Source of the DNA: a virus
Length of the DNA: 64,000 nucleotides
Strand: one strand, 5' to 3'
UHGV virus genome: UHGV-1380027
Shown one piece after another: positions 1,854-20,000 of the stretch. Positions within the stretch are counted from its first letter, which is position 1; each line of letters opens with the position of its first letter. The position numbers were made by a program, and so were the translations under genes. The notes under the pieces are model-generated. The model worked only from the letters and a program-made list of their open reading frames with translations, was not told the origin of the DNA and made no database searches.

Positions 1854-1866
1854 CTATAAAAAGAAA

Positions 1867-1891
1867 GGGGCCATTTGGCCCCCCTTTTTTT
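1867..1891. terminator. bidirectional rho-independent terminator between convergent blocks
   Basis: GGGGCC-ATTT-GGCCCC hairpin (1867-1882) followed by a T-run on plus and preceded by an A-run (T-run on minus); lies between plus gene end 1853 and minus gene end 1904. Confidence 0.7.
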
Positions 1892-1903: not shown

Positions 1904-4900
1904 TTAAAGAGAGAAAGTCGCGTAGGCTCCCAGACGATACTGCTGGTCACCAGGGAACATAACACCTATAGAGGCTGTCCCTAGAATCCTGCCTTCCTTT
2001 CCAGACTCCATTCTGAACCCTACCCATCCTGAACTCCTTGCAGCCTCGATGTTGTCGCTATACCCGAAAGTGGCAAGATCGTCAACACCAGCCCCAAACA
2101 GCAACTGAAGCTGACTTCTCGGAAGCCCTATAATTTCAGGAATATATGCACCAAAGTACACCATCTGCCCTACCTTAGGACCGCTGCCGTACTCCATCGG
2201 CTTGCTTGTAGCAAAAGTCTTCATACCAGAAGTCCCTGCCGGATTAGGGTATGCCCCGTTTGTTGCTGTACCTATCCACATTCTCCACTGTGGTGTCATC
2301 TGTTTGACAGTAAAAGATGTTGAAGACGTTTTGCGACCTGCATCATCAGTAGCTACAAACTTTATAGTGACATTACCAGGAGCTTTAAATGTTACCAGCC
2401 CTGTGGTAGCATCCACTGTTGCAATGTTGGTATTACTGCTTTCCCAAGTCTTTCTAATCCCAGACACATTGGAAGGGGTAATAGAAGGTTCCTGCATCTG
2501 CAGTTTACCACCCACAATCCCTATGCCGTTACCTGGGTTATACAACGCACCAACTTCATCTATAATGTTACCTGCCTTGAGACTGTACTTCCTTGAGAAG
2601 TTGTAAGTTCCGTTATAAGCGTGTGTCCCTGAGAAGGTGACATCTGCTTTTCCGTAAGAGATGCAAACCAAAGCATACTTCCTGTCAGGCAACGTTTCTC
2701 CAGTCTCTGGGTGAGTTTTACCTACCTGGAACACACTCGGGTCAGTGGAGTCGTGGCTATCACTAACGGAGCTTGGACCACCCATCAGTTGTGACAAGCA
2801 ATTCCTTACCCATGTCCAGTTATTGTCACTGGAGAAGTCTACGGTCAAATCAAACACAACCCACTCATTTGGCTTCCACACAGGTGTTGTGATCAACTTA
2901 CCAACACCCCCACCCTGAAGAGTAGGAGATTGTTCAGTGATCAGGGCAGAGTATGCCAGAGTGCCCAACTGCATAGTCTGGCTTGCTGTCCTCACTACCT
3001 TAGAATCAGCATCTGTGAAGTTGTTGATGATCTGGAATGTGCCATAAGTGTTTTTACAGGTAATTCTGGCGTTCAGTGTGTCAATCTTCCTCACATCTGC
3101 CATAGCAGTGTTAGACACAGAGAAGTCAGAAGCTTTAGCTGAGTTTGCCGCAACAGCAGGATCAACGTTAAGAGTTGCGTTGAACTGACAAGCAGGGGTA
3201 ACCAGCAGCTTGTTATCACCTATTTGCTTCCATGAAACACTTTGAACAGGGAGATTCCATTTAATACCTGAGAAAACTTTAGCAACCCTTGGTCCCAGGG
3301 CTCCAGTCCTGTTGTCTTTACAGCACATGGACATGGTGATCGTTGACGGAGTTGCCTGACCAAACAATTGCTGTGCTTTTACAGAGGACATAGTGTAGAA
3401 ATTGTCCTTAACAAACTCATCAGCCGCTAACGATCCGTCAGATCTCCACCATTGTACCTGGTAGCCTGTCTTATCCCAGCCACCAACCTGCTTCAAGTCC
3501 TCCCAAGAGATTTCCAGATCCCCAGTGGTAGGGTTGATTGCCGCAGTTCCTGGTGTTCCAGATGACCATATTGGGATATCGAACCACGCTGGTTTAACAG
3601 ACTGCACTGCGTTAGGTCCTATTGCAGCAGCAAGTTGTTGACCCATCAATACGCGAGCATCTTTCACCAGGCCCCGCTCAATCATAGATCCAGAGTAACC
3701 CTCTTTCTTATATGCAGAGGACCCGTTCAAATGGATGAGCCTGCTGCAGTCGAAGCCATACGCTCCACCACCATTAGGGTCTGCGAAGTTAGTTATGATT
3801 CTATCCCTAATATTTTTCCATGCCCTACCCCCAATCTCGTAGTCATGGTCATAACATCTTTGCAGCGTTGTCCAGCAAATGATTGCCATTCTTCTGCCAC
3901 CTGTAAACCCGAAAGCGCCGTCATTCAACTCTTTCCACAGGTAGCAGTTAGTTGTCCACATAGCTCTGTGAATGTTGAACCAGTTTATGGACTTGGCTGA
4001 GTTATCCCACTGAGTCCCAGGTAATTCAGGCCACACTGCATTAACCAGCATGTCTTCTGTTCCTGCATCAACCAAGAACCCTCTTACCTTTTTACCCATG
4101 CCTACCCTGTCTTTTGCAATCCAACTGCCAAACAATCTCAGTTTTGGACCGTAAACAACATCTTCCGGATGCTCAAAAGAGACATACTTTAAGTAGATTG
4201 TTGGGTCACCGTAGGTGCCATCACAAACACTTTTGTGCATGTTTTCGCCAAGATCTAGACGAAGCCCTGTCACCACTTTAGACGTGTCAGTGAATTTGTC
4301 TGTTAAATCAAATTCATACCACCACCATCCACCACCAAGCATAAATTTCTTGCATCGAGTATTGTCTGTATCAGATATTCTCTTATCCCCTGCAAAAGGT
4401 GAATCAGCAAACTGATAATGCAGAGCAGTCTCGAATAGATGTGTTGAGGTTCCGTTTTCTGCAAGAACTTGCTTACCTATTAAGTCGCACTTAATGATCA
4501 TCACAACACGTTTGTACCCGTTTGTTACTGGAACTTGCATAGATATGGATGTTCCGTCCATGTTCGATCTTAGTGCTGTCATGATGATATATGGGTCAAC
4601 AGCGTTGCCTAAAGTTTCAGGCCCTGGGATTATCTTGTACTTCTTAACCTGCCCCATGAACCTGTCACTGGCGTAAGTTGCAGCCTCAAAGCAAGATCCT
4701 CCATTAGGCAGTTCGCCAGGACCCCAGAAAAATGCGCCATAACAGTTATAAAACCACTTGTTAGGGTCGTATTTGTTCTTGAAGGTCTGAACCTCGTTAG
4801 CCTGTTTTGTCAAGAAAACCTGCGTATCTGTAAAGATTGCAGGATTTACTCTCGCCTGACGTGGAGGGTACCCTGTCGATTGGTTAAACCACTGATTACA

Positions 4901-7540
4901 AGAGTAATCTCTCATATAGTCATAATCAGAGTATTTGTTTGCATCTTCGTTCCAACACATATTTAGGTTGGTACCGCCCATGCACACAATGTATTCTGCG
5001 ATATACTTATCGCTTCTGGTAGGAATACCTATGAACCATCTATTAACAGGCTCATCCCAAGCTGTGCGCTCATCTTTAACGCAGATAGCAATCCAGTCAT
5101 GTGTTCCTGTTTTCTTGCATACATCTCGCTTCATACCGTAGTAGAACTCTTTAGTATTCGGCTCAGGTGCATTTATCAGGTAACTCCATGCCTGATTTGC
5201 ATAAGTTCCATTGGTTCGCGGGTCATGATCAAAGGCATACATGATGATCCTTTCCCCACCAAGATGTTCGCCAAGAGTAACTTTGACATTCACATCGCCG
5301 TAACCATTGCGAACAACATCCATATTATCAATAGAGATGCCCCTAGGGGTGTAGGCAATTTTCAGAGAGCTATCTTCACTGGTGCCTCCAAGTGTAATCC
5401 CTATGTTGTTTGTTGTCCCGTCGGCATATCTTACTGTGGCTTCCCAGCGTATTCCGAAATATCCTGCATCATGGCTGACAATTTTCAGTGTACGAGCACC
5501 TGGGTGAGGTTTTCCAGGATCAGGCCAAGGGTCTGGGTGTTCGTGGACAGTCAACGACGTTCCGTTTTGCTCGTTAACCTGCAACATTTTACCGCCTCTG
5601 CCGTTAGGGTTGAACTCCCATACGGCCTGTGTCTGCACTAAGTTGTTGTAGGTATTTCGTCTCTGATCATAAATCTCTTGGGTAACATCATAGGTGACTG
5701 ATCCAGCATCCATTCTGTGGAGTCGGACCATATACGATGTATCTCCTTCTACCGCAGGCTGAGTCCCATTCAGCCCGAAGTATACAGTATCGTTAACATG
5801 GAACTGCTTGTTTCTACCAACGGTATGCCACTTACCGTCAGAAGGATACGCAGGAACTATGGTGTTCCAGTTCAAAGTCCTTGTCGTGTGAGTTCTTCCT
5901 GTGCCATGTTTGTCATGATAGGTTATTTTTACAGAGTACAGGCCACGTCTGTTAACATTCCTGTTATACTGAGTAACAACAACTTCGTTGGCCCCGCCGT
6001 GGTTCCAGTTGGTGGAGAATTGGTAATTTGCATCTGTAACAACCGTACCCGCAGCATTTACCAGTTCAATCTTGTCAATAATGAACGTAGCCCCCTCTGG
6101 CTGAGGCTTCAATTTCATCTTGACCGTGTCACCAATGTAAATATTGCTAACACTGCTAACACCGTTAACGTCAAAAATATCATCAACACCCCAACTGTCT
6201 ACTGGGACATTTTTATACCAATTCTCAGGAACCTCTGTGAACCCCTGACTATTAAGTCTGCCGCCAAACAGGTTGTTAGAGCCTGCAAAACTTCCCCTTG
6301 GGATGCCTGACCACCAAAGTTTACCATTAACAACAGTAAAGGTACCTAAAAAACCTTCTCTGTGAATGCCCTGGAAATAAACACTCTCTGTCCAGCTAAC
6401 TGGGAGGCGTTGCTCAACGTATTTGGCTGTGGCAAGAGCTTGATAGTGGATAAAATTGGCCCTAGGGTTATTGTTTGCAGATTGTGCGCCAATATCATTA
6501 CATAAGTTGCGAGAGAATCCGCGATACTGCTTAGTGCCATTATTGAAGAAAATGCCACTTGTTCCGTACCCACGAGCCATTATTACTTCATGGGTGTAGG
6601 TAATATTTAAGGAACGCCATGTATCATCTCCCCAGACATCTTGCCCGTAGAATACGTTAACAAGCTGCTGATCATTAGGCTTGTGCATCCTCTGCGTTGC
6701 AATTATCGCCCCGTTCGGACCACACATGAATCCTTTCCACTCCTCCTCTGCAGGAATGCCTTTCAAATCGTTGCGAGTAATCTGAGCAGGGGGCCAAACA
6801 AGGTCGTTTCTACTGTTGTTTCTCAGAAAGTCGTATCCAGCAATCCAAAAACCTCTGGGCCCACCGAAAATAACAGAGTTGTCATGCACCTCGCAGTTGA
6901 TACTTGGGTTTTTCCAAGGGCCTGTTTCAGGATTTTCCGATGTTTCACCAATCTTTACAGGGGTTGCATGCTGGTTCTTATCTACATGTAAAGATCCGTA
7001 GGTGTTGTTACCAGACCCGTACAGGTGTAAAATGCCGTCACCCTCAGCCTCTGCCATAACCCAAACAGTGTTGTTAATACCGCCCATTACCTCGATAAGG
7101 CGCTCTGGGTGGGTGTCAAGGTGCAATCCTTGAACAATCTGTTCCGGAAGAGGTGTCCACTCGTTTACGCAAACATCGTTACCACCTGCCGCAGTGGATC
7201 CGATAAGACCTGCAGTGCAGCCGATGTAGAAAAACTGGTTATCAAAAGTCCGGATCACAAACGCACGGTCTGCTCTCCACACATGATCAACATTCCAGGC
7301 CGTCTCGCTCGGGTAGTTTATAGGGTTACGATCCCCAGTGCGACACTCCCCGAACTTGTTATAGCCAGTAATATTAAGCTGACCATCGTCAAAAAGTATA
7401 GCTAAGCTATTTACATAAGCTACTGTAGTGCTTGTACCGTCACTGTTGTCTATTGGGTATGACAGAACAGCAAGTTCCTTAACTCCACCCCTCTTATCGA
7501 GGAAATGACGACCAAGTTTTAGCAAAGGGATTGGAAGCAT
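1904..7540 (-). CDS. giant multidomain tail fiber/adhesin-like structural protein
   Basis: 1878 aa ORF, last gene of the late operon; Gly/Asn/Thr-rich repetitive beta-type sequence; C-terminal stretch resembling bacterial Ig-like domains; position downstream of the fiber genes. Confidence 0.5.
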   Translation of the reverse strand: MLPIPLLKLGRHFLDKRGGVKELAVLSYPIDNSDGTSTTVAYVNSLAILFDDGQLNITGYNKFGECRTGDRNPINYPSETAWNVDHVWRADRAFVIRTFDNQFFYIGCTAGLIGSTAAGGNDVCVNEWTPLPEQIVQGLHLDTHPERLIEVMGGINNTVWVMAEAEGDGILHLYGSGNNTYGSLHVDKNQHATPVKIGETSENPETGPWKNPSINCEVHDNSVIFGGPRGFWIAGYDFLRNNSRNDLVWPPAQITRNDLKGIPAEEEWKGFMCGPNGAIIATQRMHKPNDQQLVNVFYGQDVWGDDTWRSLNITYTHEVIMARGYGTSGIFFNNGTKQYRGFSRNLCNDIGAQSANNNPRANFIHYQALATAKYVEQRLPVSWTESVYFQGIHREGFLGTFTVVNGKLWWSGIPRGSFAGSNNLFGGRLNSQGFTEVPENWYKNVPVDSWGVDDIFDVNGVSSVSNIYIGDTVKMKLKPQPEGATFIIDKIELVNAAGTVVTDANYQFSTNWNHGGANEVVVTQYNRNVNRRGLYSVKITYHDKHGTGRTHTTRTLNWNTIVPAYPSDGKWHTVGRNKQFHVNDTVYFGLNGTQPAVEGDTSYMVRLHRMDAGSVTYDVTQEIYDQRRNTYNNLVQTQAVWEFNPNGRGGKMLQVNEQNGTSLTVHEHPDPWPDPGKPHPGARTLKIVSHDAGYFGIRWEATVRYADGTTNNIGITLGGTSEDSSLKIAYTPRGISIDNMDVVRNGYGDVNVKVTLGEHLGGERIIMYAFDHDPRTNGTYANQAWSYLINAPEPNTKEFYYGMKRDVCKKTGTHDWIAICVKDERTAWDEPVNRWFIGIPTRSDKYIAEYIVCMGGTNLNMCWNEDANKYSDYDYMRDYSCNQWFNQSTGYPPRQARVNPAIFTDTQVFLTKQANEVQTFKNKYDPNKWFYNCYGAFFWGPGELPNGGSCFEAATYASDRFMGQVKKYKIIPGPETLGNAVDPYIIMTALRSNMDGTSISMQVPVTNGYKRVVMIIKCDLIGKQVLAENGTSTHLFETALHYQFADSPFAGDKRISDTDNTRCKKFMLGGGWWWYEFDLTDKFTDTSKVVTGLRLDLGENMHKSVCDGTYGDPTIYLKYVSFEHPEDVVYGPKLRLFGSWIAKDRVGMGKKVRGFLVDAGTEDMLVNAVWPELPGTQWDNSAKSINWFNIHRAMWTTNCYLWKELNDGAFGFTGGRRMAIICWTTLQRCYDHDYEIGGRAWKNIRDRIITNFADPNGGGAYGFDCSRLIHLNGSSAYKKEGYSGSMIERGLVKDARVLMGQQLAAAIGPNAVQSVKPAWFDIPIWSSGTPGTAAINPTTGDLEISWEDLKQVGGWDKTGYQVQWWRSDGSLAADEFVKDNFYTMSSVKAQQLFGQATPSTITMSMCCKDNRTGALGPRVAKVFSGIKWNLPVQSVSWKQIGDNKLLVTPACQFNATLNVDPAVAANSAKASDFSVSNTAMADVRKIDTLNARITCKNTYGTFQIINNFTDADSKVVRTASQTMQLGTLAYSALITEQSPTLQGGGVGKLITTPVWKPNEWVVFDLTVDFSSDNNWTWVRNCLSQLMGGPSSVSDSHDSTDPSVFQVGKTHPETGETLPDRKYALVCISYGKADVTFSGTHAYNGTYNFSRKYSLKAGNIIDEVGALYNPGNGIGIVGGKLQMQEPSITPSNVSGIRKTWESSNTNIATVDATTGLVTFKAPGNVTIKFVATDDAGRKTSSTSFTVKQMTPQWRMWIGTATNGAYPNPAGTSGMKTFATSKPMEYGSGPKVGQMVYFGAYIPEIIGLPRSQLQLLFGAGVDDLATFGYSDNIEAARSSGWVGFRMESGKEGRILGTASIGVMFPGDQQYRLGAYATFSL

Positions 7541-7588
7541 TGTGTTCTCCAGATAAGAAAACCGCCCCGTCAGGAGCGGTCAGATATA

Positions 7589-9334
7589 TTAACGTTGTGC
7601 AATAACCACATCCACAATATCACCAACACCACAATATGTCAATTGTAGCAAGGTGACACTGTTGGCTTTGTTGTTAATAACAGGAGTAGCCGACAGTATG
7701 GCATATTTATCGTGTAAAGTCACGTTGTGGCCTACAGCATCCTGAATGACATAGATGATTGCAGTGAACGGGTAAGGTTTATCTTCAGCCGATGTTCCAG
7801 GCCATTGCCCTATTGTAAAATCCCCTTTCGCGTGGACAACATACATATTGGCCTGCCCGTTAGGTGTCCATGTCCCACTAGATGCGTCAGCCTCCTCTAA
7901 GTCAAACTCCACCTTCCCTGCATGGAAAGCAGGGGCAGTAATAGTTTTACCAGCTTCAATTTCTTGAGAGGTGGTTATCTTGCCACTAGAGTTAATGCCA
8001 TTACAGACAAAGTTGACATTAGAGAAGTCTGGCAGCCACCCAGTCACTGTACCTGATATTTCAAGGTTGTGAAGGTGGGTGGTGCCAGTCCCTGCTGCGT
8101 TTAAACTAACATCTCCATTTACCTGCAAGTTTCTGGTAACGTTGCAGTTTTCAGAGTTTGCAGTTGTTGCAGTTAAAGTGGTGGTTGTCAGCTCGGTAAT
8201 TACACCTTTGTTGGCTGTAAGTCCTTCTCCTTCAAAAGTGGCACGCTCATTCACCCTCAGAGTATTTAAAGATATGTTCTGGACAGATGCTGTGCCACGA
8301 ATGACTATAGATCCTCCAACCTCTAAATCTCCATTGATCAGTGCATCTCCCGTGCTTTCAATATAGCTAGGGTAGATCATGGTGCCATCTACAGAGTAGG
8401 TTATCCCTGTAACGGTGCCTGTCACCTCAAGGTTCTTAACCCTAGTGGTCCCATCAACCTGCAATGTCGGTTCGGTGGCTGCCTTCATGGCATTACCGCG
8501 AATGTACACGTAGTCAAAAAAGTTATTACCTAGACCATCAAAATGCACATCGTTGTTATTAGCCACTGGTTTCCCAGAAGTTATAGTGTCAGCTATAACT
8601 CTGTGAGTTGATACTTCATGAGGTTGCAGCTCTGTGCTCCTCCAGTCTGCATGCTTAGGATCGCTCCACGCAAAAGTCAGTGTAGAAGTATTTGCCGTAA
8701 GGATTAGGTTCCTGAAGCGTGCAGTAGAATCTGCTCCATTAACAGGTCCGTGTAAGGTAAGGGTACCCCCAACTATAGTGTTAGCAAGTTCTGTAAGACC
8801 TTTTACCACCAAAGATCCTACAGTAACTTTCATCCCCTCCATGGCTTTAAATATGCTATCCACATAGTCAACAACAAACTCTGTGTTTGCTATAGACTCG
8901 GACTTATCATCCATTGGAGGTGTAGGTACTCTCGGGTCACCTTCGAACCTTGGGCTGTTAAGTTTTGCGTAGTATTTTGCCATTACTGCAGAGTCGGTGT
9001 ATAATCTCCAGTTCGGAGATTGTGAAGGATCTGCTGGCATCCTAACCGGGTTAGATTTTGACGCTGCTGGAGCGTACCACCACTGAGGGCCTGTATCTCC
9101 TTTAAACTCATACAGCTGGTTAAAAACTGTTGTGGATGCACCATACGCCCAAGGGATCGGTGGCGTTTTAAAATAAAGGTTGTCAAGCATGGCTTTTCGT
9201 ACCGTAGGGATAGTGGTCCCATCCTCTACGACAACTTCATCCACAGCGTTACCGTTGACAACCAAGTGCAAACGTTCAGAATCAACAATTACTTGATCTA
9301 CCGCCTGCTCGAAGCTTGTCATGTCTTGCGCCAT
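7589..9334 (-). CDS. tail fiber/tailspike protein
   Basis: 581 aa, Thr/Gly/Asn-rich repeats typical of beta-helical fibers; co-oriented within the fiber cluster. Confidence 0.45.
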   Translation of the reverse strand: MAQDMTSFEQAVDQVIVDSERLHLVVNGNAVDEVVVEDGTTIPTVRKAMLDNLYFKTPPIPWAYGASTTVFNQLYEFKGDTGPQWWYAPAASKSNPVRMPADPSQSPNWRLYTDSAVMAKYYAKLNSPRFEGDPRVPTPPMDDKSESIANTEFVVDYVDSIFKAMEGMKVTVGSLVVKGLTELANTIVGGTLTLHGPVNGADSTARFRNLILTANTSTLTFAWSDPKHADWRSTELQPHEVSTHRVIADTITSGKPVANNNDVHFDGLGNNFFDYVYIRGNAMKAATEPTLQVDGTTRVKNLEVTGTVTGITYSVDGTMIYPSYIESTGDALINGDLEVGGSIVIRGTASVQNISLNTLRVNERATFEGEGLTANKGVITELTTTTLTATTANSENCNVTRNLQVNGDVSLNAAGTGTTHLHNLEISGTVTGWLPDFSNVNFVCNGINSSGKITTSQEIEAGKTITAPAFHAGKVEFDLEEADASSGTWTPNGQANMYVVHAKGDFTIGQWPGTSAEDKPYPFTAIIYVIQDAVGHNVTLHDKYAILSATPVINNKANSVTLLQLTYCGVGDIVDVVIAQR

Positions 9335-12731: not shown

Positions 12732-14804
12732 TTATGAGAAGTCTGGCGGAACAACATCTTCTACATACCCTTTCAGAGCAACCTGCCCCATATGCAGAAC
12801 AGTAGAATCTCTGGCGGTAACAGTGATGCTGTCAGACATTACTTGCGGGTATGCCCACACATACTGTTTTACCTCAGGGTATCTATACTCTATGGTTGCC
12901 ATGTTTCCGCAAATACATCTCCATAAAAATTCTTGGTAATTCCTGGTTGGGTCGTAGCCATATACCGGAGCAAGCTCTTTGCTAGGAACGAACCCTGCAA
13001 GGTATTGTATTTCAGACGGTTTCCAACCTAACTTAACGATAGGTATGTTTACAGACTCTTTTGCCTTTTCAATACCTCCCTGCATCACCCAATCGTAGCA
13101 CTCAGTGCAGAAGAAATCAAGAGCACCTGCTTCCTTTTTATATTGGTCAGCAAGGTTCAGTTTTTGCGTAAGCTCGGTTTCCATAATAGTGGGGAAAAAC
13201 AGTAAAGCTGTCATCTGAGCCGATGCAGCGTGTGCTTTTATTGCCTTTGAAATGGCTGCAATACGAGCGCCAAGCTTACCACGACAAAATGCTACATACT
13301 TGTCATAAACACCGCCAGTTTTAGGATCGTCAATAGTCCCAATGTCTAGTGCATATTCACCAGTCTCATCATAAAACGCCTGCTTTGTAGGGTAGTCATA
13401 AATACAAGGCTTACGAGTATCGGTATTGAACCACCACCACGGTTCACCAATCTGCATAATCACTGGTAGGTTGTTTCTCATAGCGGCTGATGCAAAATTC
13501 TTAAATACTGCAGTAAGGAAATTCATGCCCTCTTCAATGGTTGGAGACAGGAGGTAACTACAAGGCGTATAGCCTGTTTTAGCATAGTTATCGTTCCAGT
13601 CTCTCTGGGTCCATTCCAACGGACAGGCATCGCTATAAAGCTCAAAGCTTACAGACTGCATAACGTCGAAGTCATGTCGTTTGGCATTGTACATAAAATC
13701 ATCATGCCATTTATAAGCTGCAGCGTTTAGAGCTCCTGTTTTGTTTATAGACCATTGGGTTCCTGACCATGTGTAGTCATAATAATGGCTCATACCAACA
13801 TAATGGTTTATGGTTCCTGTATAGCCCAGACGCTTGATATTGCTCAACACCCTTAAAGGGGATACGTTCCACATATCGTCATATGCTGTGCAGATCCCAA
13901 CATCGTGTTCTTTCACCTGAATATTGTTAAGTTGCATCATTTTCCAGCCTGTGTCCGGCTGAAGAAGATCTAGACGCAACTCACACTCTACATTTTCCGT
14001 TCTCGGGTCTGTGCTATTACCTACCCAATCTTTAGGCATAAGTGGTATTAGAATCCTTCTCACCTGCCGAGGATCAACACCCATCATGTTGTTGTTCTGG
14101 TCCATCCCGACGCAGTCCTCGAAATCAATATGAATTTCTGCAACATTCTTATCCTCTGAGATGCTGACAGCATATTGAGCTAAAGGAACATAGATGATTG
14201 TACCATCAACAAGGTCTACAGGCATAATCATCTTTTCAGGGGTGGAGAAGTTGCTGGCATTGGTTATTGACATTCTGAACCAAAGCTTGGTGTTTCTCAT
14301 CTCGTAGTGATCATCAAATCCAATGCCGAAATGGTCATACTTGTCAACTGTTTCCCAAATGCACCCAGCCATGCCCCCATATGTTCTTGACACTAAACGG
14401 TTAATACAGCAGTTATTATCCGCAACAATACAGGTGCTTTCAGTCTGCTGTGTGGTTGTAACCCAGTATCTTGGGTGAAACATTCTCTCCTCAACTGTAT
14501 CCCAAGATATTCTGTCAAGATTCTCATCTGAAACTATTGTACATTTCGCTCTTTGTGTTCCAATCATAACCCCTTGGGAGTTTGATGAAAACTCCATAAA
14601 GAAGCTCCTTGGCAACCTGTTTGGCAATTTGTCAACAATTTCTACAGGGATCTCGATACTGGTTGCCCCAACCGGGATAGTTACATCGCCCTCAACATGA
14701 TCATAATCCCTACCCGGAACTGCAGTATCTTGAACTGTGCGGTAATGAAACCGTGCAGCCATTGTAGAGTAATCACGGTAAGGTTTAAAAACAGCTGTTG
14801 CCAT
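12732..14804 (-). CDS. tail-associated protein, possibly enzymatic
   Basis: 690 aa between baseplate-like genes and fiber genes; Trp/Tyr/Asp-rich sequence suggestive of a carbohydrate-active fold; no specific motif confirmed. Confidence 0.35.
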   Translation of the reverse strand: MATAVFKPYRDYSTMAARFHYRTVQDTAVPGRDYDHVEGDVTIPVGATSIEIPVEIVDKLPNRLPRSFFMEFSSNSQGVMIGTQRAKCTIVSDENLDRISWDTVEERMFHPRYWVTTTQQTESTCIVADNNCCINRLVSRTYGGMAGCIWETVDKYDHFGIGFDDHYEMRNTKLWFRMSITNASNFSTPEKMIMPVDLVDGTIIYVPLAQYAVSISEDKNVAEIHIDFEDCVGMDQNNNMMGVDPRQVRRILIPLMPKDWVGNSTDPRTENVECELRLDLLQPDTGWKMMQLNNIQVKEHDVGICTAYDDMWNVSPLRVLSNIKRLGYTGTINHYVGMSHYYDYTWSGTQWSINKTGALNAAAYKWHDDFMYNAKRHDFDVMQSVSFELYSDACPLEWTQRDWNDNYAKTGYTPCSYLLSPTIEEGMNFLTAVFKNFASAAMRNNLPVIMQIGEPWWWFNTDTRKPCIYDYPTKQAFYDETGEYALDIGTIDDPKTGGVYDKYVAFCRGKLGARIAAISKAIKAHAASAQMTALLFFPTIMETELTQKLNLADQYKKEAGALDFFCTECYDWVMQGGIEKAKESVNIPIVKLGWKPSEIQYLAGFVPSKELAPVYGYDPTRNYQEFLWRCICGNMATIEYRYPEVKQYVWAYPQVMSDSITVTARDSTVLHMGQVALKGYVEDVVPPDFS

Positions 14805-17096: not shown

Positions 17097-20000
17097 TTAG
17101 CCATGAGACTCGTTCCAAGGTCCCTGGAAGCTAGAGTTTGAACGACTAACTATTACGGTTGGACAAGATATTGTAACTCCTGTCACGCTTGACCTTGGTG
17201 TGTATATCTCGACGATAATGTCTATGGTTTGTTCACCGAGACCAGTTATCCCTACCGCACACATGCCGTTGTTGTCGTTTCCGTACTTCTTGCCTGCAAG
17301 GATTTGATGTCCGGCTATCCAAACGTTGAGCTGGGAGCCAGACAAGGTTCCGTTTAGTTTAAAGAAGAATGTTACGTTCTTACCTTGCCCTGAAACGTTG
17401 TCCACATATCTCCACCTCCAACGGCAAACCCCCTGCTGCGAGTTATATACCGGAGGACAGTCACCATAGGTCCTATGTGCAACGATTGCACCTTCGAACT
17501 GGTCAGCACGGATAACGGAAGCTTCTACACGTCCACGGAATGTACCTCCTGTTGCATCTATGGTGCCTCTAAAGCTACCATTATTGGCATAAACATCCCC
17601 ACGGAAAGTGCCACTGGTAGCGTTAACTGCCCCTGTGAAGTTACCTGCACTAGCGTTGATGTTACCTTTCACCCACACATCCATAAACTGGGCGTGTCCG
17701 TTCTTGTTAATATACCAACCGTATTTATGGTACCCGTTGCCATCGTAGTTGTTAGACGAAATTTCTTGTGCAATCTTGGCAGAAGAGATCGTCCCGTTCT
17801 CTATAAAAGCATCTTTCAAGAACGCTTGGTTGTTCTTGATTGCGAAAGCAAGGGTTGCTGTTCCATTTCCGGGGTTGTATACCGCAAAGTTGTTTGCACT
17901 AACCATGAAGTATGATTGAACTTGGCCTCCAGAGCCTTCCATGCCCAATTGGATACCTGCCACATACTTATTCCCTGCGGAGTCTACCTGTATTTTTGTG
18001 CCCCATTGAGCATTTACTTTGCCCTCTAAGTCTGTCACAGCCTTAGATGTTGTAGCTACTGCAGCTCTAAGCTCTGACACATCACCGACATCATCAATGA
18101 TCTCCTGCTTAGCAACAGCAAGTTCTTGACGAATAGCTGACGCTGTGCCGTTAATAAGATCCACGGTTGCTTTGTTGGTATCGGAGATTGTAGCGTCCAG
18201 TGCTGTTTTTGTGGAGGTCAGCTTACCATCCAAATCCTTAATCGCCTGTTTGTTGGTAGAAATTTCTCCACGTGCAGAAGTTATCTGCTCCGACAGTGCA
18301 GAGGTTTTCTGATTCAACAAATCTGTGGTGGCCTTGTTGGTATTGGCAATCAAGGTATTGAGATCAGTTTTTGCGGTAGTTATCTTACCATCAAGGGTGG
18401 TATAGTTCTTAGATACCGTCGCGTTTGTCTGACTGATCTTTTGATCCAGAGTTTCAGATGTCCTGTTGAGAAGATCCACTGTCGCCTGGTTGGTGCTTAA
18501 GATGCTTGCATCAAGTTCCGTTCTCTGAGTATTGATCTTGCCATCTAGAGTTTTATCTCCGGCAAGGTATCCGCTCTCCACACCACTTATTTGTTCTACC
18601 AACTCCCCTTTGGCTGCAACCAATTTCTCGTCTAAAGCCTCTGTCTTTTTGTTCAGAAGATCAGTGGTTGCTTTGTTGGTTGTCTCGATCAGGGATGCCA
18701 GTCTTCCACTTTCAGTGTTCAGATCGTTGGTGAACTTGTTCTGTGCAGCAACAAGTTTCCTATCCAGAGCTGTGATATTACCATTGACATCCTCAAACTT
18801 CTGAGTTGTCTCTGCAACTACTGCACCTATCCTATCTCCAAGTTGTTGGAATGCCTCATCTACCCTTCCGTCCATGTACTTGTTAAGCTCTGTGACACGA
18901 TTTTCAACCTCCTCGATAGAGGAATCTAAAGTGCTCATCAACTCTTTATAAGTTTCTGTCTTTTTAAATTCAGCATCTATCTGAGGCATCAAATCTTCAA
19001 TAGAGGTGTAGCAGCGTGCAGCGCATTCTACAAACTGAGAACTACCAAAAGCGTTTGTGGTTCGAATATACCAATAATAAATCTTATCGTTCTGCAGACC
19101 TTCAGATGTCCAAGTTGAACCAACACCCATACGGGTAGCTTTTGAAGTAACGGTTGCATCACTTGTGTCCGGCAACCTTGTCATACCAGATGTCCAAAAA
19201 TCATACTGGGTGCTTACACTTGCTAAGTCCCTGCTGTGCGGAATCAAGGTGATAGCAAAGTATCCCTGCTTAACTTCTACAGAAACAGGAGCTTCAGGTG
19301 CTTGAATGTTGAACTCGCAGTAGGCTTCTGGAGATACACCACCCTTATAAGATGTTGCAACCACGGTTGCTGTGTATGACCCTTTGGTCAATCCTTCTAC
19401 GCGGACAAACTGCTCGACTGTTTGTGCTGTCCAAATAATCTCTCCGTTCTTTCTTACCTGCACAATATTTTGAGCATAAGTTCCAACGTTGTCCCAAGCC
19501 AAAACACCATGAGTTACTTCCCCAGCTTGAAGAACAGAGTATCTGAAGTTTTGCGGTTGAGCTACACCGGACGGGGATATCGGAATATCCACATCTCCAG
19601 AATCCGGAAGTTGCCCTGTGGCATCATTCCACTCTTTAGCATCTTGACGGAGTTTTACCTTGACACCGCCCTTTTTGGTGAACTCCCATTCAAGAACCCT
19701 CATTTCTTGGCCCACTATACCAATACTTGGGAGGTCCATCGTAACGTAACGCCCAGGCTTAAATTTAAAACCCCGCATATTGCAGGTTACTTCAATAATC
19801 CTGCCAGCTCTGGCACGTCTTAAGAATATTGCGGAAACACGCTGAGCCTGATAAGGACTGGTAACAAAACGATAATCTATATCAATTATCTTTCTTTCTC
19901 CGTCCTTCTCTACCCATTCAGGTACGAACACCGATGGGAAGTCTGTTTCAGAATACCCTTTGGTTGGACTGGTGAATCTCCCAGTTATTGTGTTTGATCT

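Follow-up and report, generated by a model that had tools for sequence, protein, structure and literature searches.

The window analyzed here, a stretch of 64,000 nt of the virus genome UHGV-1380027, contains on its minus strand at positions 1904..7540 a complete open reading frame (ORF) of 1878 codons, which runs from ATG to TAA and is preceded 6–7 nt 5′ of the ATG by the ribosome-binding site GGAG. It encodes the orthologue of gp27 of phage rV5, a protein listed in the BASEL collection (bas49_0041) as "lateral tail fiber protein with intimin domain." Coordinates, strand, and length of 1878 amino acids (aa) agree exactly with a preliminary description that had been made from the sequence. The ORF is the largest in the window, followed by ORFs of 1277 and 1198 aa, and all large ORFs from approximately 53.7 kb down to 1.9 kb are located on the minus strand in a structural run of approximately 52 kb. 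A bidirectional intrinsic terminator, consisting of a GC-rich hairpin (1864..1885), is placed between the stop codon (1904–1906) and a convergent plus-strand ORF ending at 1853, and closes both the late unit on the minus strand and the unit converging on it from the plus strand. The 1878-aa gene therefore ends the late tail-fibre block, as the preliminary description had proposed. A second, terminator-like GC hairpin followed by a T-run (7560..7581, minus strand) lies in the 48-nt gap to the upstream fibre gene, just before the ribosome-binding site. Terminators are annotated at the equal relative position in phAPEC8 and Alma, and the hairpin may serve as an attenuator and thus reduce terminal-gene expression.

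The virus is a Vequintavirus, an rV5-like myovirus of Escherichia coli. Phage vB_EcoM-ECP26 (ECP26) has a 99.9% identical gene, and at least 80% of the gene in the window is present, with a DNA identity of 80–99.9%, in 108 of 121 matching phage records. On the protein level the identity to Vequintavirus proteins is 89–99.9%, and phrog_15684 (PHROG 15684), the orthologous group of rV5 gp27, covers aa 1–1877 of 1878 with 4450 bits. The genomic position, too, is conserved as in the rV5 gp27 group: the gene closes the tail-fibre cluster and converges with small ORFs of early type. According to the rV5 supplement, gp27 has 1878 aa and a mass of 208,334 Da, carries a Big_2 domain, and is classed as conserved hypothetical. 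It was seen by mass spectrometry in trypsin-digested purified virions of rV5 (3 peptides, 9 spectra, 3.1% coverage), so the absence from virions that the preliminary description had considered does not apply to this orthologue. The LL12 paper lists gp27 among seven putative fibres, and the ECP26 record labels it "Ig-like domain protein." As an entity gp27 is thus known, with loose annotations as a fibre or as a structural protein with Ig domains, and is not new. No assignment of its structure, position, or receptor was found in the literature searched, the genes that build the three lateral fibre sets of rV5-like phages are still described there as unclear, and a 2026 cryo-EM study of phi92 leaves one of three fibre sets without an assigned gene.

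A fusion of two genes by an assembly or sequencing error, which the preliminary description had named as a possible source of so long an ORF, gains some plausibility from the fact that the 99.9%-identical ECP26 record and several others annotate two coding sequences at the gp27 locus. The split in ECP26 is caused by one TAT-to-TAG substitution at codon 617 (Y617*) in an otherwise co-linear gene; the allele in the window is intact, unlike the amber 617 allele of ECP26. (The ECP26 record also contains an N at gene position 5128.) The gene of nomine carries W82*, frameshifts occur in naswa (codon 763), YP-6 (398), ime (1052), and Alma (209), and APCEc02 has a 2.95-kb internal deletion plus a frameshift; the fragmented gene of V18 was left out of this count owing to its low-quality-looking sequence. 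The splits hence are single indels or stops at differing positions, whereas rV5 and most other records contain one ORF. So does a distant lineage known from metagenome assemblies (13 clusters, 45–58% identity), where a single ORF of 1711–1976 aa occupies the same position. With a probability of (61/64)^1878, or approximately e^-90 by our own calculation, a frame of 1878 codons is not free of stops by chance. Moreover, codon differences among eight Vequintavirus alleles amount to 4.5% for nonsynonymous and 16.5% for synonymous changes over the whole length; purifying selection is continuous over the ORF, which therefore is one selected coding sequence. Since the splits are different single lesions, the distant lineage has one ORF, and selection is continuous, a fusion artefact is ruled out by the comparative data and the probability left to it is negligible. 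The combination of lesions in viable phages with strong purifying selection is consistent with a gene that is useful in nature and dispensable in culture, and is suggestive of loss during propagation.

Homologue searches with a word-indexed method yielded no more than 15 full-length relatives and additional fragments, so that the alignments stayed shallow; the family set has 16 members. Comparison with the distant lineage revealed that conservation drops from the N terminus (approximately 75% identity) to the C terminus (15–35%). A recombination hotspot within the genus, which the preliminary description had suggested looking for, was rejected: within Vequintavirus the proteins are 89–99% identical, the alleles are only moderately variable with two small hypervariable patches, and exchange of modules was seen only between genera.

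All parts of the gene described in the following are on the minus strand. The protein begins with the peptide MLPIPLLKLG... (aa 1–20; 7481..7540), which is conserved and contains the motif M-[LFY]-P-I-P with invariant residues. The same start is common to the terminal tail-cluster genes of five genera, represented by gp27, phAPEC8 gp086, SSE121 gp048, ALITA/phi92 gp152, and Av-05. In Phapecoctavirus, Seunavirus, Justusliebigvirus, and Avunavirus the syntenic slot is occupied by genes of 604–891 aa, each of which has the N-terminal peptide and some of the RCC1-like, Big_2, and SGNH-like modules. Because all these terminal genes begin with M-[LFY]-P-I-P, the peptide, with or without the probable propeller that follows it in gp27, would be a common virion-docking element. 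The latter region (aa ~21–440; 6221..7480) is the most conserved part of the protein and, based on profile matches, is an RCC1-like repeat module and a probable β-propeller. The first 197 aa have 30–40% identity to the N termini of phAPEC8 gp086, SSE121 gp048, and proteins of 4MG and GAP31, and hhalign aligned aa 1–490 to aa 1–449 of phAPEC8 gp086 (99.6%, E = 9e-25). The module as shared with gp086 and gp048 (31–40% identity) passes the Pfam RCC1 cutoff of 21.7 bits in these two proteins (24 and 36.1 bits, respectively), whose PDB matches include RPGR, UVR8, and HERC2. In gp27 itself WD40_RLD matches weakly (E = 7.5e-5; also in 12 of the 16 family members), and both WD40_RLD (22.6 bits vs. 150) and RCC1_2 (13.2 vs. 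22) stay below their Pfam cutoffs. A closed propeller of this type would have seven repeats of about 50–60 aa; G-x-N-x-x-G signatures are clear only at aa 59, 175, and 420, the predicted local distance difference test (pLDDT) score of the AlphaFold2 (AF2) model is below 50 in this region, and self-comparison of gp27, including self-hhalign, detected no significant internal repeats. The module is followed by an all-β, Ig-like β-sandwich (aa ~450–560; 5861..6193; AF2 pLDDT about 56–78) that aligns with the Ig region of gp086.

The central region (aa 850–1430) had neither Pfam nor PDB sequence matches, and profile comparisons suggest that it contains a diverged SGNH/SASA-like domain. It is preceded by a β-sandwich with the motif "N-x-YGD" (aa ~735–840; 5021..5338; AF2 pLDDT 70–79), which is homologous to the pre-esterase domain of ALITA, Av-05, and N4 gp65. 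The N-terminal part of the SGNH/SASA-like domain (aa ~843–968; 4637..5014; low AF2 confidence) comprises block I "EYIVCMGGTNLNMCW" (approximately aa 850–860), in which residues G855, G856, T857, and N858 are invariant, and a Cys-rich stretch. Inserted behind it is a confidently modelled β-jelly-roll (aa 969–1124; 4169..4636; AF2 pLDDT 70–85), probably similar to a carbohydrate-binding module (CBM). The C-terminal part of the SGNH/SASA-like domain (aa ~1130–1330; 3551..4153) again was modelled with low confidence, and a further β-sandwich (aa 1331–1424; 3269..3550) belongs to a type of which N4 gp65 has several copies in its C-terminal half. The evidence for this assignment is stepwise. In a tiny database of syntenic genes, aa 1219–1419 of gp27 matched phi92 gp153, ALITA, and Av-05 (E = 6e-6 to 7e-5), and gp153/ALITA match the solved chain of N4 gp65 (E = 1e-24). 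A profile of ALITA, Av-05, phiAxp-2, and N4 gp65 aligned to aa ~1130–1420 over 242 columns (hhalign, 95.1%, E = 3.4e-8), with "GTEDM" (aa 1160–1164) aligned to "GQGEND," and a full-length gp27 family profile matched the same SGNH-type module with 91.2%. The sandwich with the "N-x-YGD" motif, together with block I, gave a co-linear alignment to aa 739–868 (hhalign, 58%, E = 9.7e-5). Between the two SGNH-like pieces gp27 contains an excess of approximately 260 residues, including the jelly-roll.

A related but catalytically active protein has to be considered at this point, namely a receptor-modifying fibre in which the split SGNH/SASA-like domain is a carbohydrate esterase with T857 as non-canonical nucleophile, acting, for example, on O-acetyl groups of O-antigen, capsule, or ECA/NGR-type glycans (ECA, enterobacterial common antigen). 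Homologues are annotated as "tail carbohydrate esterase," phi92 gp153 has a weak Pfam SASA match (E = 0.0079), and a reference list indicates that other phages carry esterase tailspikes. Furthermore, G855-G856-T857-N858, E1162-D1163, and H1191-R1192 are invariant in 16 of 16 family members, and the segment aa 1151–1200 is nearly without amino-acid change (ratio 0.03), as would be typical of an active site. These residues mark a strongly constrained site in the SGNH-like domain. However, the SASA match of gp153 is below the cutoff (16.3 vs. 24.8 bits), and no SASA/SGNH Pfam match was obtained for gp27 even at E ≤ 10. The canonical catalytic Ser of block I (GDS/GQSN) is absent from gp27, which has GGTN, and from its relatives, which have GQDN, GGDN, or GINS/GINQ, while the block V His of ALITA, Av-05, and phiAxp-2 (IHY/VHY) is unmatched in gp27 and N4 gp65. 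Also, the text searched on N4 gp65 presents it as a receptor-binding protein and makes no mention of esterase activity. An active esterase is thus an unlikely alternative, and the domain seems better described as a diverged and catalytically degenerate SGNH/SASA-like fold split by a CBM-like insert. As a separate observation, aa 851–1430 (window positions 3251–4993) contain 14 Cys and 22 Trp residues, with C853, C950, C1063, C1222, and C1229 invariant, a richness unusual for a virion protein that folds in the cytoplasm.

An Ig-like C terminus had been anticipated in the preliminary description and was recovered as a tandem array of Ig-like domains (aa ~1529–1759; 2264..2956; pLDDT up to 93) with similarity to intimin D domains. 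It includes a Pfam Big_2 domain (aa 1682–1733; nt 2342–2497) with an E-value of 1.6e-8, 34.8 bits (cutoff 22.8), and a model pLDDT of 80–93, and intimin was matched in the PDB sequence search (E = 0.0013). Fold searches with Foldseek against PDB and BFVD retrieved generic tandem-Ig adhesins, S-layer proteins, cadherins, and Ig-decorated phage proteins. The last segment is a moderately modelled β domain (aa 1774–1878; 1907..2221) with the lowest conservation between lineages, in line with the C-terminal quarter being the least conserved part of the protein, and is presumed to form the distal tip. A hypervariable patch (aa 1751–1800) contains indels in the nomine/APCEc02-type alleles.

The Pfam, PHROGs, and PDB sequence searches were carried out with the whole protein and five segments and yielded the Big_2/intimin matches plus the weak RCC1-like hint, and AF2 was run on two halves of gp27. 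A composition typical of β-rich adhesins, as noted in the preliminary description, was broadly borne out by the high content of Gly (10.1%), Thr (8.0%), Asn (7.0%), and Val (6.9%) and by two models consisting mostly of strand. The same description had listed a long fibre, a multidomain depolymerase, and a host-range determinant as possible functions. A homotrimeric long tail fibre or tailspike of the canonical kind, acting as a depolymerase, would fit the position in the tail-fibre cluster, the "lateral tail fiber" label in BASEL, and the thin 70-nm fibres of rV5. Yet Pfam, PHROGs, PDB sequence, and fold searches did not reveal any β-helix or any domain of a glycosidase or lyase, and the one enzyme-related module, of the SGNH/SASA type, is devoid of the canonical catalytic residues. 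Likewise, no triple β-helix, coiled coil, collagen, fibritin, or C-terminal intramolecular chaperone was found by sequence, AF2, and fold searches, approximately half of the residues being modelled at low confidence; phi92 gp151, located in a like cluster, plainly shows Tail_spike_N, collagen, and fibritin signatures. Finally, a propeller of the RCC1 type, an array of Ig domains, and the module of N4 gp65 are each folded from a single chain. A canonical trimeric fibre or depolymerase is consequently very unlikely. Two parts of the earlier proposal are retained, namely that a structural gene closes the late tail-fibre cluster and that its product would have a fibre-like role in host recognition.

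Together these results favour, on balance and by a modest degree of belief, the interpretation that gp27 is a low-copy, probably single-chain, glycan-binding accessory tail adhesin that is probably dispensable in the laboratory. A conserved N-terminal module, the exchange of distal modules across genera, and a variable C terminus make a host-recognition fibre the best reading, and a conserved anchor with swapped distal modules is the pattern of receptor-binding proteins. The single-chain state is suggested by the RCC1-like, Ig/β-sandwich, and gp65-type modules all being single-chain folds, and the upstream hairpin together with the 3.1% mass-spectrometry coverage fits a low copy number. According to this model, the M-x-PIP peptide and the RCC1-like module would dock gp27 to the baseplate or fibre network, and the remaining ~1400 residues would project β-sandwich spacers and glycan-binding-type modules like beads on a string: the CBM-like jelly-roll within the degenerate SGNH/SASA-like fold, the gp65-type sandwich, the Ig/Big_2 domains, and the variable tip. 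Reversible contacts of these modules with bacterial surface polysaccharide might aid primary adsorption and shape the host range, and might not be needed for plaque formation on laboratory strains. We speculate that an extended gp27 with some twelve domains would be ~50–60 nm long (our own estimate), close to the thin 70-nm fibres occasionally seen in rV5 micrographs.

Several observations weigh against the accessory adhesin model. Ig-like domains are also typical of capsid- or neck-attached decoration fibres (Hoc-like or head-fibre-like) that mediate non-specific adherence, e.g., to mucus or glycans, and dispensability would fit such a protein too. phrog_215, which matches aa 1593–1877, is filed under "head and packaging," among the BFVD fold matches are Hoc and Ig-containing major capsid/tail proteins, and aa 615–831 of phAPEC8 gp086 match the RcGTA head spike fibre (E = 5.7e-14). 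A decoration fibre is nevertheless quite unlikely, given that the gene ends the baseplate/fibre block away from the head genes, that this position is kept in five genera, and that the central module is common to the tail receptor-binding protein N4 gp65. For the accessory adhesin as such, tail location is inferred, and so are N-terminal attachment, the monomeric state, glycan binding without catalysis, and dispensability. The SGNH-like assignment comes from profile–profile comparison only, with very shallow profiles (effective number of sequences, Neff, about 1.8–2.5), and a profile search with aa 850–1430 against 1.84 billion representative proteins retrieved the protein's own family only. 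The CBM-like matches were placed on aa 969–1124 by aligned length only, and the invariant residues T857, E1162, D1163, and H1191 could form a non-canonical active site. The AF2 half models were poor overall (mean pLDDT 44 and 54), so that propeller, SGNH-like fold, and oligomeric state are structurally putative, and the models of the N-terminal module and the helical region 1126–1330 were unreliable. With regard to dispensability, two-piece records account for 6 of 31 in gp27 and 4 of 60 in a 1277-aa control gene in which nonsense changes were not scorable, an excess that is not decisive, and some of the frameshift lesions may be sequencing errors.

A broader and rather doubtful extension of the accessory adhesin model is that the terminal M-x-PIP genes of the rV5/phi92/phAPEC8/PVP-SE1 supergroup belong to a so far unrecognised group of accessory adhesins, each a single chain built on a plug-and-play principle, which would dock via one short peptide to one conserved baseplate or fibre site and exchange modules (RCC1-like propeller, Big_2, catalytically dead SGNH fold with CBM insertion) with N4 gp65, with gp27 having turned a dead-esterase fold to glycan recognition. 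The docking site would perhaps correspond to the phi92-type "fiber II" density or to the thin 70-nm fibres of rV5. No description of the M-x-PIP start, the RCC1-like module, the split SGNH-like fold with its CBM-like insert and relation to N4 gp65, or the distribution of gp65 modules over two genes was found in the literature searched; these architectural insights are incremental, since they are based on shallow profiles and mediocre models. They concern phages that are widely isolated, have a broad host range, and serve as components of cocktails for therapy and biocontrol. The domain map translates the largest and least understood gene of the fibre cluster into testable constructs and suggests sites for module swaps in host-range engineering. 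If natural selection maintains a gp27 that growth in the laboratory does not require, the gene may be lost unnoticed from production strains, which seems to have happened in ECP26, nomine, and APCEc02, and this could affect performance on wild hosts.

Two neighbouring genes provided further information. The upstream 581-aa neighbour (7589–9334, minus strand), an orthologue of rV5 gp28, matches over aa 8–324 the solved tail fibre of Pectobacterium phage φTE (9cuy_g / 9mjn; E = 2e-78), which offers a structural template for the attachment of this fibre to the baseplate wedge. A 690-aa ORF (12732..14804, minus strand) contains PF23844 and PF23845, the N-terminal domain and TIM barrel of gp65 (E = 7e-80), so that modules of N4 gp65 are spread over two fibre genes, this ORF and gp27. 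Among the database records, gp152 and gp153 of phi92 (NC_023693) correspond to one 719-aa ORF in ALITA (6321–7983 vs. 3999–6158), and gp153 is flagged "no RBS, weak prodigal statistics" (RBS, ribosome-binding site); the phi92 reference record probably contains a frameshift or mis-annotation at gp152/gp153. Approximately 15–18 unannotated "Campylobacter phage" records (MG0656xx, host C. jejuni) are 92–97% identical to genes of E. coli Vequintavirus, which looks like mislabelling or contamination and not like a true host jump. A distant relative assembled from a metagenome (SRR25477885) has, among the small convergent genes 3′ of its gp27 homologue, an ORF of 369 aa (17189–18298) that encodes a YadA_anchor domain, a trimeric autotransporter anchor; this is unusual for a lytic myovirus.

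Compared with known systems, gp27 shows no difference of substance from rV5 gp27 and the other Vequintavirus orthologues, which represent the same gene, are equally long, and likewise come last in the cluster. A weak N-terminal similarity between LL12 gp27 and phi92 gp150, the colanidase tailspike, has been published but was not reproduced here, as neither blastp nor the family profile yielded a match at E ≤ 10. Phage phi92 gp150 is a β-helix-type tailspike; the detectable phi92 relatives of gp27 are gp152 (N-terminal peptide) and gp153 (central module). The bacterial Ig-array adhesins and S-layer proteins (intimin/invasin, Lig, Sap/EA1/SbsC) resemble gp27 in their Big_2 domains and strings of β-sandwiches, but this is an architectural analogy only, and gp27 differs from intimin-type adhesins in having no outer-membrane anchor and no lectin-like intimin tip.

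A structural reference is N4 gp65 (PDB 9lc0, 9yf4), a non-contractile tail sheath and receptor-binding protein, which has been solved as a single chain of ten domains and is present in six copies. It shares with gp27 the β-sandwich, the SGNH-like domain, and the repeated β-sandwich. The direct profile match between both proteins is weak, and the link runs through the ALITA and Av-05 intermediates. The N-terminal domain and TIM barrel of gp65 (PF23844/PF23845) are not part of gp27, which instead possesses the RCC1-like module, the CBM-like insertion, and a long Ig-rich C-terminal extension. As N4 is a podovirus whose gp65 wraps the tail tube, the same arrangement cannot be assumed for gp27. A further comparison is with the genes of the same slot in related genera: the "tail carbohydrate esterase" of ALITA (719 aa; Justusliebigvirus) and Av05_00106 of Av-05 (647 aa; Avunavirus) have the SGNH-like domain and β-sandwich as in gp27, and gp086 of phAPEC8 (891 aa; Phapecoctavirus) and gp048 of SSE121 (604 aa; Seunavirus) have the RCC1-like module. 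All four follow a gp28-like fibre gene, start with M-x-PIP, and contain Big_2. Each of these genes carries only a subset of the modules, whereas gp27 joins both sets and adds ~260 aa in the SGNH-like domain and ~450 aa at the C terminus.

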